Below, piece by piece: positions 8,718-24,833 of a DNA stretch of 38,925 nt. The stretch's first letter is position 1; each line of letters starts with the position of its first letter. Source of the stretch: an uncultured Candidatus Saccharibacteria bacterium (lineage in GTDB: Bacteria > Patescibacteriota > Minisyncoccia > 2-02-FULL-40-12); assembly GCA_964361105.1 (NCBI GenBank), contig CAYHZG010000002.1, positions 1-38,925 of the forward strand, in the 5' to 3' direction. The position numbers were made by a program, and so were the translations under genes. The notes below the pieces were generated by a model. It was not told where the DNA came from. It did no database searches and was given only the letters and a program-made list of their open reading frames with translations.

Positions 8718-10205
8718 ATGATTACGGCCCCAAAAGAAACGGACTTGGAAAAAAAACTGAAAGAAATGCGGCGACGAGAGCTTAAAGAAAGGGGTATTGA
8801 ACCAAGACCTCCTGGCCCGTCTTCTCAAGAAAAAACCTCAACCAAAGAAACAAAATTGGGAATAATAAAACTTGAGGCTAGCAAATTAAATCAATTTGAA
8901 AAAGAAATTAAGAATCTGACTGACCTTAAAAATAAATTTTCGAAAATAGCCACTACCGAAATACTCGAAGTCCTTTTCGCCGGGACTTTATCTAGCCGGG
9001 CTTCGGATATCCACTTTGAACCAGAAGAAGAAGGGGTTAGATTAAGACTCAGGATAGATGGCGTCCTTCAGGATATCTTTAATCTTGAGAAAAAGGACTA
9101 CCCCTCAGTTTTAAACCGGATTAAACTAATGGCCGGGCTCAAGATTAATGTCCATGATGCACCCCAAGACGGACGATTTACCTTAAAAACGGAAAAGGCA
9201 ATGGAGACCCGGCTACGCAACGGAGACCCGGCTACGCACGGGTCCCTCTCCAAGCCAGGTCCCTCTCCAAACGATATTGAAGTCAGGGTTTCGGCCTTGC
9301 CCGGAGCTTTTGGCGAGAGCCTTGTGATGCGGCTACTTGACCCGAGAACTATAAAAAGAGGTTTGGAAGAGCTTGGGTTAAGAAAAGACCTTTTGGAAGA
9401 AATTGAAAAACAGCTTAAAAAAACAACTGGAGCAATTTTAACTACCGGCCCAACTGGTTCGGGAAAAACTACTACCCTTTACGCTTTTGTAAATTTCGTC
9501 AATAAACCAGGAGTAAAAATCATAACCATCGAAGACCCGATTGAATACCATATTCAAGGCATATCTCAAACCCAGGTTAAACCGGAAAAGGGCTATAGTT
9601 TCGCTAATGGTTTAAGATCTATAGTCAGACAAGATCCGGACGCGATCCTGATCGGCGAAATCAGGGACTCGGAAACAGCCGAAATAGCCATGCATGCAGC
9701 TTTAACCGGCCACCTCGTCTTTTCTACAATGCATACCAATGATGCCGCCGGAGTAATCCCTCGCCTGATTGATATCGGCACCAAACCTCAGATTATCGCC
9801 CCGGCCATAAATTTAGCCATGGCCCAGAGACTAGTAAGAAAACTCTGTCAGAAATGCAAGAAAAAAGTCAGGGCCACACCTGAAGAATTAAAAAAAATAA
9901 AAGTGGTCTTTAAAAATCTGCCTCAAAAAGTCAAAGAACCAAGAGTGACTGACGAAGTTAAGATTTTTGAAGCAGGAGAATGCAACCAATGCAACTTCAC
10001 CGGCTATCAGGACAGAATCGGCATATTTGAAGCATTTGTAATTGACGAGGAGTTAGAGAAACTTATTCTCAAGTCTCCGGCCATAAGCGAAGTCAGGGAC
10101 TTAGCCATAAAAAAGGGTATGGTTACTTTGATTCAAGATGCTTACTTAAAAATTTTGGAGGGAATAACTGATTTTAAAGAAGTGGAAAGAGTTTTGGGCG
10201 AGTAA
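8718..10205 (+). CDS. pilB: Type II/IV secretion / type IV pilus assembly ATPase (GspE/PilB family)
   Basis: 495 aa with Walker A 'GPTGSGKTTT', an Asp box, Walker B 'ILIGEIRD', a His box 'TGHLVFSTMHTND' and a tetracysteine 'CQKC...CNQC'. It carries a 24-codon GC-rich insertion at 9199-9270. Confidence 0.88.
   Translation: MITAPKETDLEKKLKEMRRRELKERGIEPRPPGPSSQEKTSTKETKLGIIKLEASKLNQFEKEIKNLTDLKNKFSKIATTEILEVLFAGTLSSRASDIHFEPEEEGVRLRLRIDGVLQDIFNLEKKDYPSVLNRIKLMAGLKINVHDAPQDGRFTLKTEKAMETRLRNGDPATHGSLSKPGPSPNDIEVRVSALPGAFGESLVMRLLDPRTIKRGLEELGLRKDLLEEIEKQLKKTTGAILTTGPTGSGKTTTLYAFVNFVNKPGVKIITIEDPIEYHIQGISQTQVKPEKGYSFANGLRSIVRQDPDAILIGEIRDSETAEIAMHAALTGHLVFSTMHTNDAAGVIPRLIDIGTKPQIIAPAINLAMAQRLVRKLCQKCKKKVRATPEELKKIKVVFKNLPQKVKEPRVTDEVKIFEAGECNQCNFTGYQDRIGIFEAFVIDEELEKLILKSPAISEVRDLAIKKGMVTLIQDAYLKILEGITDFKEVERVLGE
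9199..9270 (+). repeat. Second copy of the 72-nt GC-rich palindromic element, in-frame in the PilB-like gene
   Basis: Near-identical to 4939-5010 but read one frame over. Here it encodes METRLRNGDPATHGSLSKPGPSPN; in gpmI it encodes NGDPAPQRRPGFARVPLQAGSLSK. Confidence 0.9.
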
Positions 10206-10612
10206 GTCCAGTCGCCCCTATGACTAGCCATGGCTCCCAATAGGGTGCGGACAAAGTCCTCGATCTTGGGAAATGCGAGGGAAGAATAACCCCTAGGAAT
10301 AGCCCAGAAGACGTTAAACGTCTCCAAACTATCCGTAGATTAATTATTCCGGTGTTGGTCTATGGTTTTAAATCAAAGACCAGCTGCCCGCACCCTAGTA
10401 GGAACCACAGTCTGGTCGCCCACAGGAGCAAATCAATTTAGCATTAAGATTTTGAGGCAAATTCTAGGAGCGAGAAATGAGTGTATATAGAATACGTGAT
10501 TTCCGAGCGACAAAGAATTTGGCCAAAATCTTAGATGCCCCCTGAGGGAAGCAAAATTTATTATCCTGTGGACAACCAGACAAAAAACCCGTATTTTGGG
10601 TTTAAATAAATT
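10206..10612 (-). ncRNA. Candidate structured non-coding RNA of unknown class (about 400 nt; ends uncertain)
   Basis: 510-bp gene-free gap with locally elevated GC. Nested long-range helices: 10228-10250/10388-10410, 10410-10426/10565-10581 and 10445-10465/10514-10533. Further hairpins at 10258-10280, 10296-10350, 10307-10325, 10354-10384 and 10536-10553. Most non-Watson-Crick positions are G-U only in the minus-strand reading. A consensus promoter reads into it on the minus strand. Confidence 0.55.
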
Positions 10613-14939: not shown

Positions 14940-15020
14940 TGCTTTTATAATAACTTTTTATTTGAATTTTGAGAATTTGGACAAAAATATCAATTTATGG
15001 CAGAATATCAAAACATGAAT

Positions 15021-15138
15021 CCCGTTAGAGACAAAATAAACGTCAATATAAAATAGTGGTGACAAAATCTCTTAACGGGATAAATCAATAACATAATTTG
15101 GCACGGTTGCGGCTTGGCCGCAACCTGTCTCTAACGGG
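15021..15138 (+). repeat. TIR element abutting the PBP1A start codon (divergent, composite copy)
   Basis: CCCGTTAGAGAC (15021-15032) and GTCTCTAACGGG (15127-15138) are 12/12 complementary. An internal half-site TCTCTTAACGGG lies at 15068-15079. A GC hairpin GGTTGCGGC-TTG-GCCGCAACC lies at 15105-15125. The element is flanked by ATGAAT on the left and ATGAAA on the right. Confidence 0.75.
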
Positions 15139-17234: not shown

Positions 17235-18293
17235 CTAAGAACTGGTAGCTCTGTATTTTGGCGTAACTATTTTATCCATCAATTTAAAAAGTGGGTAAAA
17301 TTTTGAAACCGGAAAATCAAAAGCCCCGAGATAGTTGAATCTTTTGCCATCAAAAGCTCTTTTAAAAAGAGTAAAGCCATGCCAAGGATGGTTTTTATCG
17401 TCTTCGGGTCCAAGCCCCCAAAAGTCAAATGTTTTGACGCCGACTCTCTTTAAGTCCTTTAATATCCCCCAAATATAACCGTAATTGAAAAATTTACTAT
17501 ATTGTTTATGCCTTCCGGTTCCACCCCAGATATAAAAAGCCCTGTCTCCCAAAACAAGGACTATGCCGTAAGCTAAAATAAGGCCTTTGACTTTAGCAAT
17601 ATAAAACCTGACTGCTCCCAATCTGGTCATCTCGTTAAGCAAAAAAATAAACTGTTTGAATGGTCTTAAAGGAAAAGAAAATCTTTTACCGGTTATTCGG
17701 TAAAGGTTATAAAAGCCTTTTAAATCATCTTGGGTGACCTCATCGCTTTTTAAAGTTTCAACTGTTATTAATTCTCTTTCTGAACGATAAATTAAGTTCC
17801 TGGCTGTTCTTCTGAATTTTTTAAGTAGTTCTTCTTCAGAAGGCGTCAAATCAATTAAGAGAGTGGAAGACGGTTGAACGGTCTTAAAATATTCTTTAAA
17901 GTCGCTTTCTTTTAAAACCCTAACCAACTCCTCATTTTCTTCAACTGGCGGCTCCAAACGCAAAAAAAGAGTTTTAGGGTCTTTTAATTTTTCTATAAAA
18001 AAAACTTTAAGGGCGCTGATTACTTCTTTGACTAATTCCGGGTTTCCCCAGTCGGTTACTGGGCCTCTTGGAATATAGAACAGAGAAAATCCAAGAGGCA
18101 GCCTTCTTTTTAGCAATTGGGCTACCCCCTTTAATTCTCCTTCTTTTAAAAAACCAATTCTCTGGCTTTCCCAGTTGAATTTAGATTTAATCTCTCCCCA
18201 TTCCCAAGATTGAAGAATGTCTTTATATTTTGAACTGAGCAGGAAATCATTGTATTTTTTTCTGTCGTTTTCATTAAAAATAATTAAATCCAT
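17235..18293 (-). CDS. FemAB-family peptidoglycan interpeptide-bridge aminoacyltransferase
   Basis: 'ILQSWEWGEIKSKFNWESQRIGF' and 'LFYIPRGPV' are typical of the FemX/FemAB family. Start set at the second ATGGAT (18293), because the 24 upstream codons are the repeat element. Confidence 0.85.
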   Translation of the reverse strand: MDLIIFNENDRKKYNDFLLSSKYKDILQSWEWGEIKSKFNWESQRIGFLKEGELKGVAQLLKRRLPLGFSLFYIPRGPVTDWGNPELVKEVISALKVFFIEKLKDPKTLFLRLEPPVEENEELVRVLKESDFKEYFKTVQPSSTLLIDLTPSEEELLKKFRRTARNLIYRSERELITVETLKSDEVTQDDLKGFYNLYRITGKRFSFPLRPFKQFIFLLNEMTRLGAVRFYIAKVKGLILAYGIVLVLGDRAFYIWGGTGRHKQYSKFFNYGYIWGILKDLKRVGVKTFDFWGLGPEDDKNHPWHGFTLFKRAFDGKRFNYLGAFDFPVSKFYPLFKLMDKIVTPKYRATSS

Positions 18294-18359
18294 CCCATTA
18301 GAAATCCGACTCGCCTTTGGCGAGTCGGCAAAAATCTCTGATTTTTTATTTCTAACGGG
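18294..18359 (-). repeat. 66-nt TIR element between the dnaN stop and the FemAB start
   Basis: 65/66 identical to 23349-23414 in the opposite orientation. Arms are CCCGTTAGAAAT and ATTTCTAATGGG. Internal hairpin CCGACTCGCC-AAAG-GCGAGTCGG at 18306-18328. ATGGAT flanks both sides. Confidence 0.9.
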
Positions 18360-18364
18360 ATCCA

Positions 18365-19465
18365 TTATGTTTTTAGGGGCATAATCAAATAAGTAAAATT
18401 TAGGTCTTGATCTTTTGGTCTTAAAGTTATTGGCGCCCCTTCGCCAGCGTATTCAAAAACAATATCTTCAGAAGAGATATTCTTTAGGCCGTCTACCAGA
18501 TAATTATAGTTTAGCAAAACTTCAAATGGTTCATTAATTTGAATATTGGGATTATTTTTGACTCTCGAGTTAAACTCGCCTCGGTCAGAATTTTTAGAAA
18601 ACACGACCGCCTCTTTTTTGTCAATCCTCAAACCGATGTCGTTTATATTGCTTGAAAACAGTCCGGCTAATCTTATGTTATTTTGAAGGTCTTCTTTTTT
18701 GAATAAAACCTGGGAAACTGATTTTGTGGGGATAACTTTTTGATAATCTGGATACCGGCCCTCAACCAAACGGGAAATAATTTCAAAATCATCTGAAGAA
18801 AACTGAATCTGATTTTCCTCTATGCTGATTAAAGTATCTTTTTCATAGTCAGAAAAGATTCTTATTAGCTCGGCCACAGTATTTCTTGGAATTATTACCG
18901 AGATTTGTTTGTTGCAATTTATGTCGATTATTTTTTCAGTCAGACGGAAACTATCAGTAGAAGCAAGATAAATTTTCGTTTTATTAAAACTAATAAAAAC
19001 ACCACCGAGTTCTGGTCTGGTTTGGGAAACAGAAATTGAATCAAATACAGAAGCCAAGGCGTTTTTTAAAACCCGACTCGGTAAGGTGACCACCGGATCC
19101 TTTTTTAATTTAGGAATTAGTGGGAAATCTTTAGGGTCGAGGCAAATAAATTTTGTCTTAAAATTAATACTTTGAATATTTAAAATATTATCCTTTAAAA
19201 GGAGCTCTATTTTGTCATCTTTGATATTAGAAACAAAATCGGAAAATATTTTTGCCGGTATGGCTACCTTACCTTCATTCTCGGTGGTAGCTTTAAGATA
19301 GTAATTTATTCCCAATTCTAAATTAGTAGTTGAAAGATTGACTTGATTATTTTTAAAAGTCATTAAAATAGCATTTAAAACCGGCAGGTTTAGATTTTTA
19401 CCGACAATATTTTTAACCGTGTTTAAACCTTGCTGAAGATTTCTAGTTATTATTGTAATTTTCAT
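18365..19465 (-). CDS. dnaN: DNA polymerase III beta sliding clamp
   Basis: 366 aa with a three-domain beta-clamp pattern, directly downstream of dnaA. Confidence 0.9.
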   Translation of the reverse strand: MKITIITRNLQQGLNTVKNIVGKNLNLPVLNAILMTFKNNQVNLSTTNLELGINYYLKATTENEGKVAIPAKIFSDFVSNIKDDKIELLLKDNILNIQSINFKTKFICLDPKDFPLIPKLKKDPVVTLPSRVLKNALASVFDSISVSQTRPELGGVFISFNKTKIYLASTDSFRLTEKIIDINCNKQISVIIPRNTVAELIRIFSDYEKDTLISIEENQIQFSSDDFEIISRLVEGRYPDYQKVIPTKSVSQVLFKKEDLQNNIRLAGLFSSNINDIGLRIDKKEAVVFSKNSDRGEFNSRVKNNPNIQINEPFEVLLNYNYLVDGLKNISSEDIVFEYAGEGAPITLRPKDQDLNFTYLIMPLKT

Positions 19466-21694: not shown

Positions 21695-21921
21695 TGAAAA
21701 CGTTAACTATTGGTCTGATAAAACTATATCAAAGTACTTTTTCGCCTAATCACGGCCTTGAATTTTTTGGTTTTTTGACCGGTTGCCGGTTTTACCCTTC
21801 CTGTTCCGAGTATTCAATTCAGGCGATAAATAAGCACGGCCTGATAAGGGGCCTTTTTAAATCAATCGTAAGGATTTTAAAGTGCAATCCATGGTCAAGA
21901 GGCGGAGTTGATTTACCATGA
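21694..21921 (+). CDS. yidD: Membrane protein insertion efficiency factor YidD
   Basis: 75 aa with 'CRFYPSCSEYSIQAINKHG' and 'LKCNPWSRGGVD'. TGA stop at 21919-21921. Confidence 0.92.
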   Translation: MKTLTIGLIKLYQSTFSPNHGLEFFGFLTGCRFYPSCSEYSIQAINKHGLIRGLFKSIVRILKCNPWSRGGVDLP

Positions 21922-22063
21922 CCCAGTAGTAGAAATTCGGCAGGTTTTTAGCCATGTCGTTGTAATCTACTGGGAGCAGATTAATAATAATTTTTGTTAA
22001 TTTTTGGCAATATCTAGTTTTATAAAACCAAACTAAGACATATGCCGAATTTTCACTACTGGG
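21922..22063 (-). mobile_element. 142-bp ORF-less (MITE-like) derivative of the GIY-YIG cassette, inserted in the yidD/yidC ATGA junction
   Basis: TIRs CCCAGTAGTAGAAATTCGGCA (21922-21942) and TGCCGAATTTTCACTACTGGG (22043-22063) are 19/21 complementary. They have the same two end variants (GTAGTAGAAATTCG and GTAGTGAAAATTCG) as 1440-1753, but inverted. Direct ATGA at 21918-21921 and 22064-22067. Confidence 0.75.
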
Positions 22064-23291: not shown

Positions 23292-23348
23292 TCAGATATT
23301 AGGTTATCAGTACTTAGGGTAAAAGGAAAACCCTATTTTTTTATGGAT

Positions 23349-23414
23349 CCCGTTAGAAATAAAAAATCAGAGATTTTTGCCGACTCGCCAGAGGCGAGTC
23401 GGATTTCTAATGGG
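23349..23414 (+). repeat. 66-nt TIR element abutting the flippase start codon
   Basis: Arms CCCGTTAGAAAT (23349-23360) and ATTTCTAATGGG (23403-23414). Hairpin CCGACTCGCC-AGAG-GCGAGTCGG at 23380-23402. Flanked by ATGGAT at 23343-23348 and 23415-23420. Confidence 0.9.
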
Positions 23415-24833
23415 ATGGATTTGCATAGAATCTACAAAAACTTTTTCATTGCCTCTGTTTCTCGATTGTTTACGGCCGTGGTGGGCTTGATTATCATTGG
23501 ATTTTTAACCAGGCATCTCGGGCAAATAGGGTATGGCATTTATGAGACCATCCTTTCCTACCTTTTCATTTTCACAATTTTGGCTGATTTTGGTCTCCAC
23601 ATAGTTCATGTCCGAGAAATTTCTCGCCATCCCGAAAAAGAAGAGTTTATTTCCGGAAATATTTTTACCCTTAGATTTATTTCCCTAATTTTAGTAATAA
23701 TTTTAGCGGTTATTGTCGGTTCATTTTTGCCCTATTCAGCAGAAACTAAGACCGGGATCTTGATTGCCACGATTTTTGTCCTTTTTTCATCCTTAAGTCA
23801 AATTTTATCCGGTATTTTTCAAAAGTATCACACTTTTTACTTGGTTTCTTTCTCGGATATATTGACTCGACTGATTCAGTTGGGTCTGGTTTTTTATGCA
23901 ATAAAGGCAGGTTTTGGTCTTTTGGCTTTTGTTTGGATACTTTCCATAACTAGCGGTCTTCAATTTGCAATAGTTTTCTTTTTATCGCGTCGTTTCATTA
24001 AGTTTCCTTTTACTTTTGATTTTTCTTACGCCAGAGAGGTCCTAAAAGTCTCTTTGCCGGTGGCCGCCTCAATCCTATTTACGGCAATTTATATCAGAAC
24101 CGATGCCTTAATGCTTTCTTTAATGAAACCAGCTTCTGATGTTGGAATTTACCGTTTGGCGGCCAAGCTACTGGAAACGATTGTGTTTTTCCCGGCCCTC
24201 CTCGTAGAACTGACCATGCCCTCATTTTCCAGTTTTGCCTTTGAGGCGAGACACGTTTTTAAAATTATTTTCATAAAGATATTTAATATTTTATTTATTT
24301 TGGCAGTACCAGTAGTTGTTTTTCTGACTGTTTTGTCCCATTCGATTGTCTTAATCCTTGGTGGGCAGGAGTTTTTAAGTTCGGCCCTGCCCTTAAAGAT
24401 CCTGGCATTCGTGGTTGGCCTGGTCTTTTTAAATAACCTCGGAGGCAGGGCCTTGATTGCTTTGGAACTTCAAAGGACTGGGATGTGGATTTATATTTCT
24501 GGCGCAGTTTTAAATATTGTGGCTAACTTATTGGTTATTCCCAAATACTCTTATATTGGCGCTTCTTTTACCACTTTAATAACCGAAATTGTGGTCACGA
24601 TTATGATGTTTTTGATTATTTATCAAAAGACCGGTTTTACTGCTGAAATGAAAAGGATCTATAAGCCCATTTTGGCCGGCTTAATCATGGCCTTAGTTAT
24701 TTATAAATTTAAAGAATTTAATATTTTAGTTCCCTTTTTCTTGGGACTAGCGGTCTACTCCTTAGTCCTTTATTTTATTGGCGGTTTCACCAAAAAGAAT
24801 ATAGAAGAAATTCTAAATTTTAAGGGAGTATAA
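23415..24833 (+). CDS. Oligosaccharide/lipid-linked precursor flippase (MOP superfamily, Wzx/MurJ-like)
   Basis: About 472-aa polytopic protein with roughly 12-14 hydrophobic segments and the typical N-terminal 'SRLFTAVVGLIIIGFLTRHLG'. Start set at the second ATGGAT. Confidence 0.8.
   Translation: MDLHRIYKNFFIASVSRLFTAVVGLIIIGFLTRHLGQIGYGIYETILSYLFIFTILADFGLHIVHVREISRHPEKEEFISGNIFTLRFISLILVIILAVIVGSFLPYSAETKTGILIATIFVLFSSLSQILSGIFQKYHTFYLVSFSDILTRLIQLGLVFYAIKAGFGLLAFVWILSITSGLQFAIVFFLSRRFIKFPFTFDFSYAREVLKVSLPVAASILFTAIYIRTDALMLSLMKPASDVGIYRLAAKLLETIVFFPALLVELTMPSFSSFAFEARHVFKIIFIKIFNILFILAVPVVVFLTVLSHSIVLILGGQEFLSSALPLKILAFVVGLVFLNNLGGRALIALELQRTGMWIYISGAVLNIVANLLVIPKYSYIGASFTTLITEIVVTIMMFLIIYQKTGFTAEMKRIYKPILAGLIMALVIYKFKEFNILVPFFLGLAVYSLVLYFIGGFTKKNIEEILNFKGV

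Follow-up and report, generated by a model that had tools for sequence, protein, structure and literature searches.

Probably MITE-like hairpin elements inserted at start codons in a Saccharibacteria genome and in other Patescibacteria

Background

Bacterial MITEs, such as the Correia elements (CREE) of Neisseria, MITEAba12 and Nezha, are short, non-coding, multi-copy sequences with terminal inverted repeats (TIRs) and a short target duplication. Correia elements lie at gene boundaries and form hairpins in transcripts. REPs and REPINs, which are mobilised by RAYT, are units of about 60-120 nt in which two short inverted sequences surround a variable spacer and form a long hairpin; they occur in tandem clusters and carry no internal transposase. 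Rickettsia palindromic elements (RPEs) are palindromic sequences tolerated in coding genes if the frame is kept, and integron attC sites are hairpin sites of 57-141 nt with GTTAGA/TCTAAC-like cores and a variable centre, located between a stop codon and the next gene. Members of the IS1380 family, in the ISfinder descriptions, have ends beginning with CC and target duplications of 4-5 bp. We know of no report of such elements in the small genomes of CPR bacteria (Patescibacteria).

Here we describe three elements, E1, E2 and E3, from the dnaA-dnaN / rnpA-yidD-yidC-jag region of a CPR bacterium belonging to Candidatus Saccharibacteria. We are fairly confident of the model as a whole, in which E1-E3 are non-coding, hairpin-forming, MITE-like mobile DNA located at start codons. 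They belong to what is apparently a large, undescribed family of mobile hairpin-forming elements in CPR/Patescibacteria; full-text searches of the literature found no description of it.

Three related elements in the window

The window, i.e. the whole stretch of 38,925 nt analysed here, contains two copies of a 66-nt element that the initial annotation had described as identical at 65 of 66 positions, flanked by ATGGAT and different in a hairpin loop, all of which was confirmed by alignment. On the plus strand, positions 23343-23420 read ATGGAT-CCCGTTAGAAAT-(42 nt)-ATTTCTAATGGG-ATGGAT, and with its terminal T (23348) and terminal A (23415) E1 measures 68 nt (Table 1). In a three-way alignment the one difference between E1 and E2 appears as CCAGAGG versus CCAAAGG in the inner hairpin loop. 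E2 has the same orientation relative to the FemAB gene as E1 has relative to the flippase gene, and its upstream ATGGAT is overlapped by the dnaN stop codon TAA (18365-18367). A family copy had also been suspected at the PBP1A gene and was found there as E3, whose interior has an extra copy of the right end, TCTCTTAACGGG, at 15067-15078 and a GC hairpin beside the right arm.

The RNA fold of E1 (-43.8 kcal/mol, z = -6.9) is closed by a stem of 14 bp and has two hairpins inside it, that of E3 reaches -50 kcal/mol (z = -6.8), and in both folds the A and U of the downstream start codon are paired within the stem. A scan of the window with the pattern CCCGTTAGAR-N(40-100)-YTCTAAYGGG found three elements, compared with none in 100 shuffles; the pattern gives four matches for the three elements, E3 being matched on both strands. 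Directly before the upstream ATGGAT of E1, at 23314-23342, a short stem (TAGGG...CCCTA) is followed by seven T, and looks like the terminator of the preceding jag/R3H gene abutting the flippase start.

Table 1 Positions of the elements and their flanking sequences in the window
Feature	Positions	Strand	Description
E1, 66-nt core	23349-23414	+	12-nt arms CCCGTTAGAAAT / ATTTCTAATGGG, A-rich spacer, GC hairpin
E1, inner GC hairpin	23380-23402	+	CCGACTCGCC-AGA-GGCGAGTCGG; loop holds the sole E1/E2 difference
E1, left flank ATGGAT	23343-23348	+	Native A, left TGGA copy (23344-23347) and element terminal T; start of the long ORF in gene-caller output
E1, right flank ATGGAT	23415-23420	+	Element terminal A, right TGGA copy and native T; position of the native start codon of the flippase gene (Polysacc_synt/MurJ)
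E2	18294-18359	-	Same element as E1, inverted; 18288-18365 with flanks
E2, upstream flank TAATGGAT	18360-18367	-	ATGGAT copy at 18360-18365
E2, downstream ATGGAT	18288-18293	-	Native FemAB start
E3	15021-15138	+	118-nt family member, arms CCCGTTAGAGAC / GTCTCTAACGGG; ends directly at ATG 15139
E3, left flank ATGAAT	15015-15020	+	Retained upstream ATG; opens a 13-codon uORF with stop TAG within E3
E3, right flank ATGAAA	15139-15144	+	PBP1A start codon (Transgly + Transpeptidase)
E4	21922-22063	+	142-nt element with a different 21-nt inverted repeat, CCCAGTAGTAGAAATTCGGCA; not of the same family as E1-E3

Empty sites in related strains

Syntenic contigs were compared from three relatives whose DnaN is 92%, 87% and 82% identical to that of the window. 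At the dnaN/FemAB junction the 92% and 87% relatives (L137 and L135) have AAAACATAATGGATTC, with overlapping genes and a single ATGGAT. The flippase start in the 87% relative (L135) reads ...TTATGGATTTGCAC, likewise with a single ATGGAT, this relative being the one source of the flippase empty site, since the contig of the 92% relative ends short of the gene. At the PBP1A start the 92% and 87% relatives have ...ATATCAAAACATGAAAA with a single ATGAAA, and the empty site of E3 is AACATGAAAA. No family copy was seen in the syntenic 7-21 kb of the three relatives.

Because the relatives have one ATGGAT or ATGAAA at these three sites, E1, E2 and E3 are insertions, and the empty sites show that they entered this lineage after its split from strains of the same aquifer. 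All three were thus inserted recently, each into A/TGRA/N at the start codon of its gene (flippase, FemAB or PBP1A). That E1 and E2 still match at 65 of 66 positions is a sign of recent activity of the element, and a third copy of their subfamily (L138) comes from the same sample. Together with the excess of start codons described below, the filled and empty sites support the original view of a TIR element with a target-site duplication at start codons. The right-side identity of the two copies into ATGGATTT, which had been considered as part of the element, is native sequence, because relatives without the element start with ATGGATTTGCAC (flippase) or ATGGATTC (FemAB). For strain typing, filled and empty sites tell close strains of the same aquifer sample apart.

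Covariation of the stem

Copies of the family share the ends CCCGTTAGAR and YTCTAACGGG, which form a 12-bp stem in most of them. Among the matches listed, the length of the perfect stem peaks at 12 bp (74/143 copies); the base outside the stem, next to CCC and GGG, forms a complementary Y-R pair in 94% of the copies listed, and pairing drops to background at position 13. The hairpin pointed out in the initial annotation shows covariation across the ~140 copies listed, at positions 10-12 and at the terminal Y-R pair. At arm positions 10, 11 and 12, both sides differ from the common bases in 31, 49 and 52 of 138 copies and just 2-8 copies are unpaired; at the terminal pair both sides differ in 65/138 (matches listed). 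The observed covariation score at these four stem positions was reached by none of 500 shuffles. Within the E1 subfamily, L138 carries the compensatory change AAT/ATT to AGT/ACT. G-T wobble pairs in the stem are no commoner than mismatches.

Very short versions also occur. A mini inverted repeat with family-type arms, CCCGTTAGAGGTCTTAGCTCTAATCGGG, lies almost loopless at 36850-36877 within a UvrD-like ORF, and the viral contig L003 has similar hairpins of 27-28 nt with little beyond the stem.

Despite the likeness of the cores to integron attC sites, the elements have the order 5'-GTTAGAR ... YTCTAAC-3' on both strands, whereas attC sites have RYYYAAC...GTTRRRY, and an attC origin was rejected because of this order. 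The elements also differ from attC sites in having no L boxes and no cassette array, in their housekeeping flanking genes and in the empty sites of relatives.

A duplicated target of four base pairs

Flanking hexamers are identical at five or more of six positions in 73 of the 142 copies listed, as against 3 of 142 control hexamers. Direct-repeat identity is 0.70-0.77 at hexamer positions 2-5 and 0.46-0.49 at positions 1 and 6, with a background of about 0.2. A 6-bp duplication was dropped because the repeat is much weaker at positions 1 and 6 than at 2-5, and also because of copies with ATGAAT...ATGAAA flanks over ATGAAA empty sites and of cases with ATGAAC...GTGAAT. The former flanks are those of E3 and L138 (the ATGAAA empty site is that of E3, none having been fetched for L138), and the latter recur in other copies. 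The best fit is a 4-bp duplication, TNNA, with the neighbouring Y and R assigned to the element. The direct ATGGAT repeat had been taken for the target duplication itself; the duplication stands, but its length is better given as 4 bp, TGGA, plus the T...A pair.

The duplicated 4-mers vary (TGAA, TGGA, TAAA, TCAA, TAGA and others). PATEs derived from IS200/IS605 have a fixed target without duplication and differing subterminal hairpins; here the target varies and is duplicated, and the ends are mutually inverted.

Eight start-site copies have ACTTGT as the upstream flank in place of the duplicated one and are left unexplained by the model. In this group (L105:687, L124:165, L069:6901, L088:7728, L052:7174, L112:3557 and L110:22), ACTTGT or a near variant stands in place of the duplicated ATGNNN, in many cases 6-13 nt downstream of a -10-like box, and a related group is flanked on both sides by CTTGY...RCAAG.

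Distribution of the family

The census was performed with the pattern CCCGTTAGAR-N(40-100)-YTCTAAYGGG on one-genome-per-species contigs and on viral contigs, and is a pattern-defined sample of the matches listed, with gene calls that are ORF-based rather than curated. Family matches were obtained in at least 120 genome stretches and in 12 stretches of viral contigs. Among the matches listed, most hosts are Patescibacteria (Saccharibacteria, Paceibacterota, Nomura-, Kerfeld-, Kaiser- and Wolfebacteria), and others are MAGs of Omnitrophota, Planctomycetota and Desulfobacterota type. A core of 9-10 nt is common to copies across phyla.

The copies are 60-120 nt long, with AT-rich interiors and no coding capacity of their own. 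Interiors are unrelated from copy to copy, with similarity in only 9 copy pairs among 62 of the matches listed. Both orientations relative to the gene occur, so that a fixed orientation to the downstream gene was rejected, although pairs with similar interiors mostly agree (8/9). Tandem copies exactly 6 nt apart and nested copies indicate repeated use of the same site. Tandem arrays are found at L064 5899-6278, L070 7674-7895, L055 2943-3104 and L129 3212-3380, along with a case of one element inside another; a single gene in L064 is preceded by three elements that belong to two families. Viral contigs of about 50% GC (among them L003, L012 and L014, which are one 30-kb IMG/VR contig) carry family copies mostly between co-directional genes, just upstream of the SD sequence and start codon, and no start-codon duplication was seen at the copies in viral contigs.

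Size, lack of coding capacity, inverted ends, target duplication and dispersed near-identical copies are all traits of MITEs. The family differs from them in having no known parent IS, an inverted repeat of only 12+1 bp whose inner 3 bp covary, a TNNA rather than TA duplication and a 9-10-nt core that spans phyla, and in that more than half of the CPR copies listed lie exactly on a start codon and rebuild the start. No match was found by blastn of E3 against plasmids or of E1 against phages, and JGI metagenomes scanned for exact matches to the E1 interior gave none either. Rfam at gathering thresholds yielded only tRNAs, and with E up to 10 across 14.8-23.7 kb weak matches only, none on an element.

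Start codons and downstream genes

Among the matches listed there is a strong preference for a distance of zero between element and start codon: 55 copies have at distance 0 a start that opens 80 codons or more, and at any distance of 1-30 nt the number is at most 4. When at least 60 codons are required, a start abuts 58 of the 133 copies listed, compared with a baseline of 11% for matching hexamers (p ~1e-21). Adjacency to a start was seen for 50/90 copies in named CPR genomes versus 2/26 in other phyla (matches listed), where the usual duplication is TAAA. In a further, smaller spike, made up of 16 copies, the duplication contains a stop codon. The terminal pair is T-A, which gives ATG, in 42/50 CPR start-site copies versus 8/35 elsewhere (p = 2e-8), and we therefore argue that selection acts on the downstream codon. 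According to an earlier alternative the element carries its own start codon. This is one-third right, because the element supplies the first base (A, or G) of the start codon, while the TG is duplicated target. The preference may reflect targeting of start codons, survival of none but the harmless insertions in very compact genomes, or both.

Copies inside ORFs number 15, and 13 of them have a frame-preserving length. This behaviour, as well as the 24 residues added by E1 and E2, is reminiscent of RPEs, but the resemblance is functional only: sequence and host are unrelated, most copies here lie at gene boundaries, and the target duplication is clear. REPs have a palindromic unit after GTAG, are extragenic, in 3' regions, and show no duplication. 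In the E1 family (family 1) the arm, YCCCGTTAGARNN, is not self-complementary, a 5' GTAG is absent (GTAG occurs only in the E4-type repeat), the target is duplicated, and copies lie on start codons or in genes.

The three family copies of the window precede genes for PBP1A, FemAB and a flippase, and the initial annotation had accordingly considered a shared cis-regulatory leader, i.e. a regulon signal, for cell-envelope genes. That reading now appears very improbable. It fails because the downstream genes are functionally diverse: for 58 downstream genes of other genomes, 74 Pfam families were matched, none of them in more than two genes, and the functions are mostly housekeeping, including ATP synthase, topoisomerase, UvrD, PGK, TyrRS, DnaA, release factor, ribosomal protein L1 and RuvC. 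The element is missing from the orthologous envelope genes of relatives, the interiors are unrelated, and no Rfam family matched an element even at E up to 10. A cis-regulatory RNA would keep to one gene class and be present in orthologues; here only the closing stem is conserved.

Reading frames through the elements

Both long ORFs start with MDPVRNKKSEIFADSP(E/K)ASRISNG-MD, and the flippase-like and FemAB proteins share their first 24 residues because E1 and E2 are open and in frame from the upstream ATG. The in-frame 24-residue extension noted at the outset is thus real for these two copies but is not a property of the family: compatible lengths are found in 15 of the 61 start-site copies listed, and only E1 and E2 form open fusions.

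That the 24 residues might be a conserved N-terminal module of the two proteins has almost no probability left, even though both long ORFs are open and are called in their long form in public assemblies. Orthologues in the 87-92% relatives lack the extension and start at the downstream ATG (FemAB has 352 aa there and 376 aa with read-through of E2). The Pfam homology of FemAB begins only after the extension, and the peptide, doubled to a 50-aa query and compared with 5.8 billion proteins, gave one other protein, which is again a read-through of the element (L138). Public gene calls (L001, L002; ENA Hainich H51 contigs) have the long forms of 496 aa for the flippase and 376 aa for FemAB, and the long-form flippase is encoded on two contigs of the Hainich H51 groundwater assemblies. 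For annotation this means that gene callers read through in-frame copies, giving unrelated proteins one spurious N-terminus, that the artefact propagates into protein databases, and that other family copies may lead to misplaced start codons.

How the insertions may be tolerated

In the model that we prefer, the element proper would be Y-CCCGTTAGARNN...NNYTCTAACGGG-R, a 12-bp inverted repeat with a terminal Y-R pair that encloses 40-100 nt of unconstrained sequence, and its insertion would duplicate the 4 bp TNNA. Where the target is TGNA after the A of an ATG, the left copy would keep the old ATG, and on the right the terminal purine and the duplicated TG would form a chimeric start codon, ATG or GTG. 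Through this rebuilding an intact start codon and the full coding sequence would be kept, and the native downstream codon would probably be the functional start. Rare use of Shine-Dalgarno sequences in these genomes may be what makes the insertion tolerable. From the upstream ATG that is kept, a short frame would run through the element to a TAA that lies in the right arm and precedes the start by 4 nt, to a TGA that overlaps ATGA or, for E1/E2 only, in frame into the gene; ribosomes could thereby unwind the hairpin and then reinitiate.

SD-like 4-mers precede 13% of the control starts in these CPR loci. A TANNNT box, which at control starts across the CPR loci L015-L134 peaks 6 nt upstream of the ATG, is located 5-9 nt upstream at 22/42 element sites (52%) compared with 85/285 control starts (30%). 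The scarcity of SD sequences and the TANNNT peak suggest that leaderless or SD-independent initiation may be widespread in these CPR loci. The frame of the retained ATG is open through the element in 17/44 copies versus 14/88 for the other frames and 6.3/44 for shuffled interiors (p = 0.005). Stops of these uORFs cluster at -4 (TAA in the right arm, 11 copies) and at +4 (TGA overlapping ATGA, 4 copies), which suggests that termination-reinitiation may operate in a subset of copies. The uORF of 27 of the 42 non-fusion copies, among them E3, terminates well before the start; coupling therefore cannot be the general route of expression, and in those copies the start must be found directly. An outward promoter in the element was considered and rejected, -10-like boxes being about equally frequent in sense (75) and antisense (70).

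It is also conceivable, although unlikely, that the hairpins are mobile in origin and have been retained as control elements of translation or stability that benefit the host, with the A and U of the start codon hidden in the stem and expression tuned by a uORF or by condition-dependent unfolding. Such a role would agree with the location of the first two bases of the AUG within the stem, the surplus of open uORFs with a stop at most 4 nt from the start, the strong preference for A-terminated copies at starts and the common orientation of 8/9 sequence-similar pairs. It is difficult to reconcile with the absence of copies at the same genes in close relatives, interiors that are unconserved and present in both orientations, downstream genes with no common function, the lack of strand bias in the -10-like boxes, and tandem and nested copies that look like selfish accumulation. 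Whatever their role, genes that look essential (PBP1A, DnaA, ATP synthase, release factor, ribosomal protein L1) start right after a 13-bp stem. Since the first two bases of the start codon are part of this stem and SD sequences are scarce in these genomes, start selection in these uncultured bacteria is here directly testable.

Mobilisation and the preference for starts

Neither the window nor about 1 Mb of fetched loci yielded an autonomous element with these ends or a transposase, and the window ORFs that were scanned include no Y1 transposase. The search for a parent covered end pairs 0.3-4 kb apart with matching flanks, unpaired ends and degenerate partners; the end pairs all resolve as separate, nested or at most ~400-nt elements, in pattern scans that cannot span a gap of IS length. 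The IS1380 family is a candidate parent, as a lead only, and neither a transposase of the IS1380 type nor a full-length element with CCCGTTAGA ends was found. For the study of mobile DNA the family is thus one that is abundant and recently active in small CPR genomes and has no known mobilising enzyme.

Covariation at arm positions 10-12 would not be required by a protein that binds two double-stranded ends, and is therefore a hint of a single-stranded hairpin intermediate. We regard it as rather doubtful, but worth considering, that the elements move as a folded single strand by way of a structure-recognising enzyme, instead of a DDE transposase acting on double-stranded ends. Candidates, with the same reserve, would be an HUH/Y1 transposase (as for REPIN/RAYT and IS200/IS605) or a recombinase similar to integron integrases, and the preference for starts might then come from single-stranded DNA near the promoters of leaderless genes. 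The sharp 12+1-bp stem, its four covarying positions and the compensatory change within one subfamily are consistent with this route, as are the minimal versions of 27-28 nt (L003; window 36850) that are little more than stem, the lack of a transposase partner in the window and the ~1 Mb of loci, and the enrichment of the TANNNT box before the retained ATG. Arguments against it are that the duplicated 4-mers vary, unlike the fixed, guide-specified target of IS200/IS605, that the arms are not themselves palindromic, unlike REPs, that E2 lies at an operon-internal stop/start overlap and not at a promoter, and that G-T wobbles are no commoner than mismatches.

Tentatively, the family may consist of specialists, phylum-spanning hairpin elements that live on start codons by means of homing and of translation-neutral ends. 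Homing to first codons would possibly proceed via single-stranded DNA at leaderless promoters or via another cue linked to starts. Equally tentative is the part assigned to the 13-bp ends, which would hold the purine that rebuilds AUG or GUG, arms that are free of stops in the incoming frame, and a built-in UAA that precedes the new start by 4 nt and would serve termination-reinitiation. If true, this niche strategy would be new among selfish elements, and it would give insight into initiation beside a stable stem in CPR bacteria that are poor in SD sequences and rich in leaderless genes.

Other repeats in the window

E4 is a related phenomenon from a different family. It lies between the yidD stop codon TGA (21919-21921) and the yidC ATG (22064), with ATGA on both sides, and has no clean empty site because the relatives have a spacer of 24-80 nt at that position. 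Elements of the E4 type (CCC(A)GTAGTA...) are found at 21922-22063 of the window, at L136 19084-19274 and at L064 6024-6153. In all three, GGG is directly followed by ATG; residence at start codons is therefore not limited to one repeat family.

A second repeat family is represented by a GC-rich 72-nt element with two copies, 4939-5010 and 9199-9270, which are 96% identical and lie within the coding sequences of iPGM and of a T2SS/T4P ATPase, where they are read in different frames. The L136 orthologue has a gap of exactly 24 aa there, and the 72-nt element is therefore an in-frame intragenic insertion similar to RPEs. The spacer between the T2SS ATPase gene and ruvB is filled by two adjacent long inverted-repeat structures with no Rfam match, at 10231-10407 and 10410-10581, each about 175 nt long and with arms of 23 and 18 nt; these may be further MITE-like elements.
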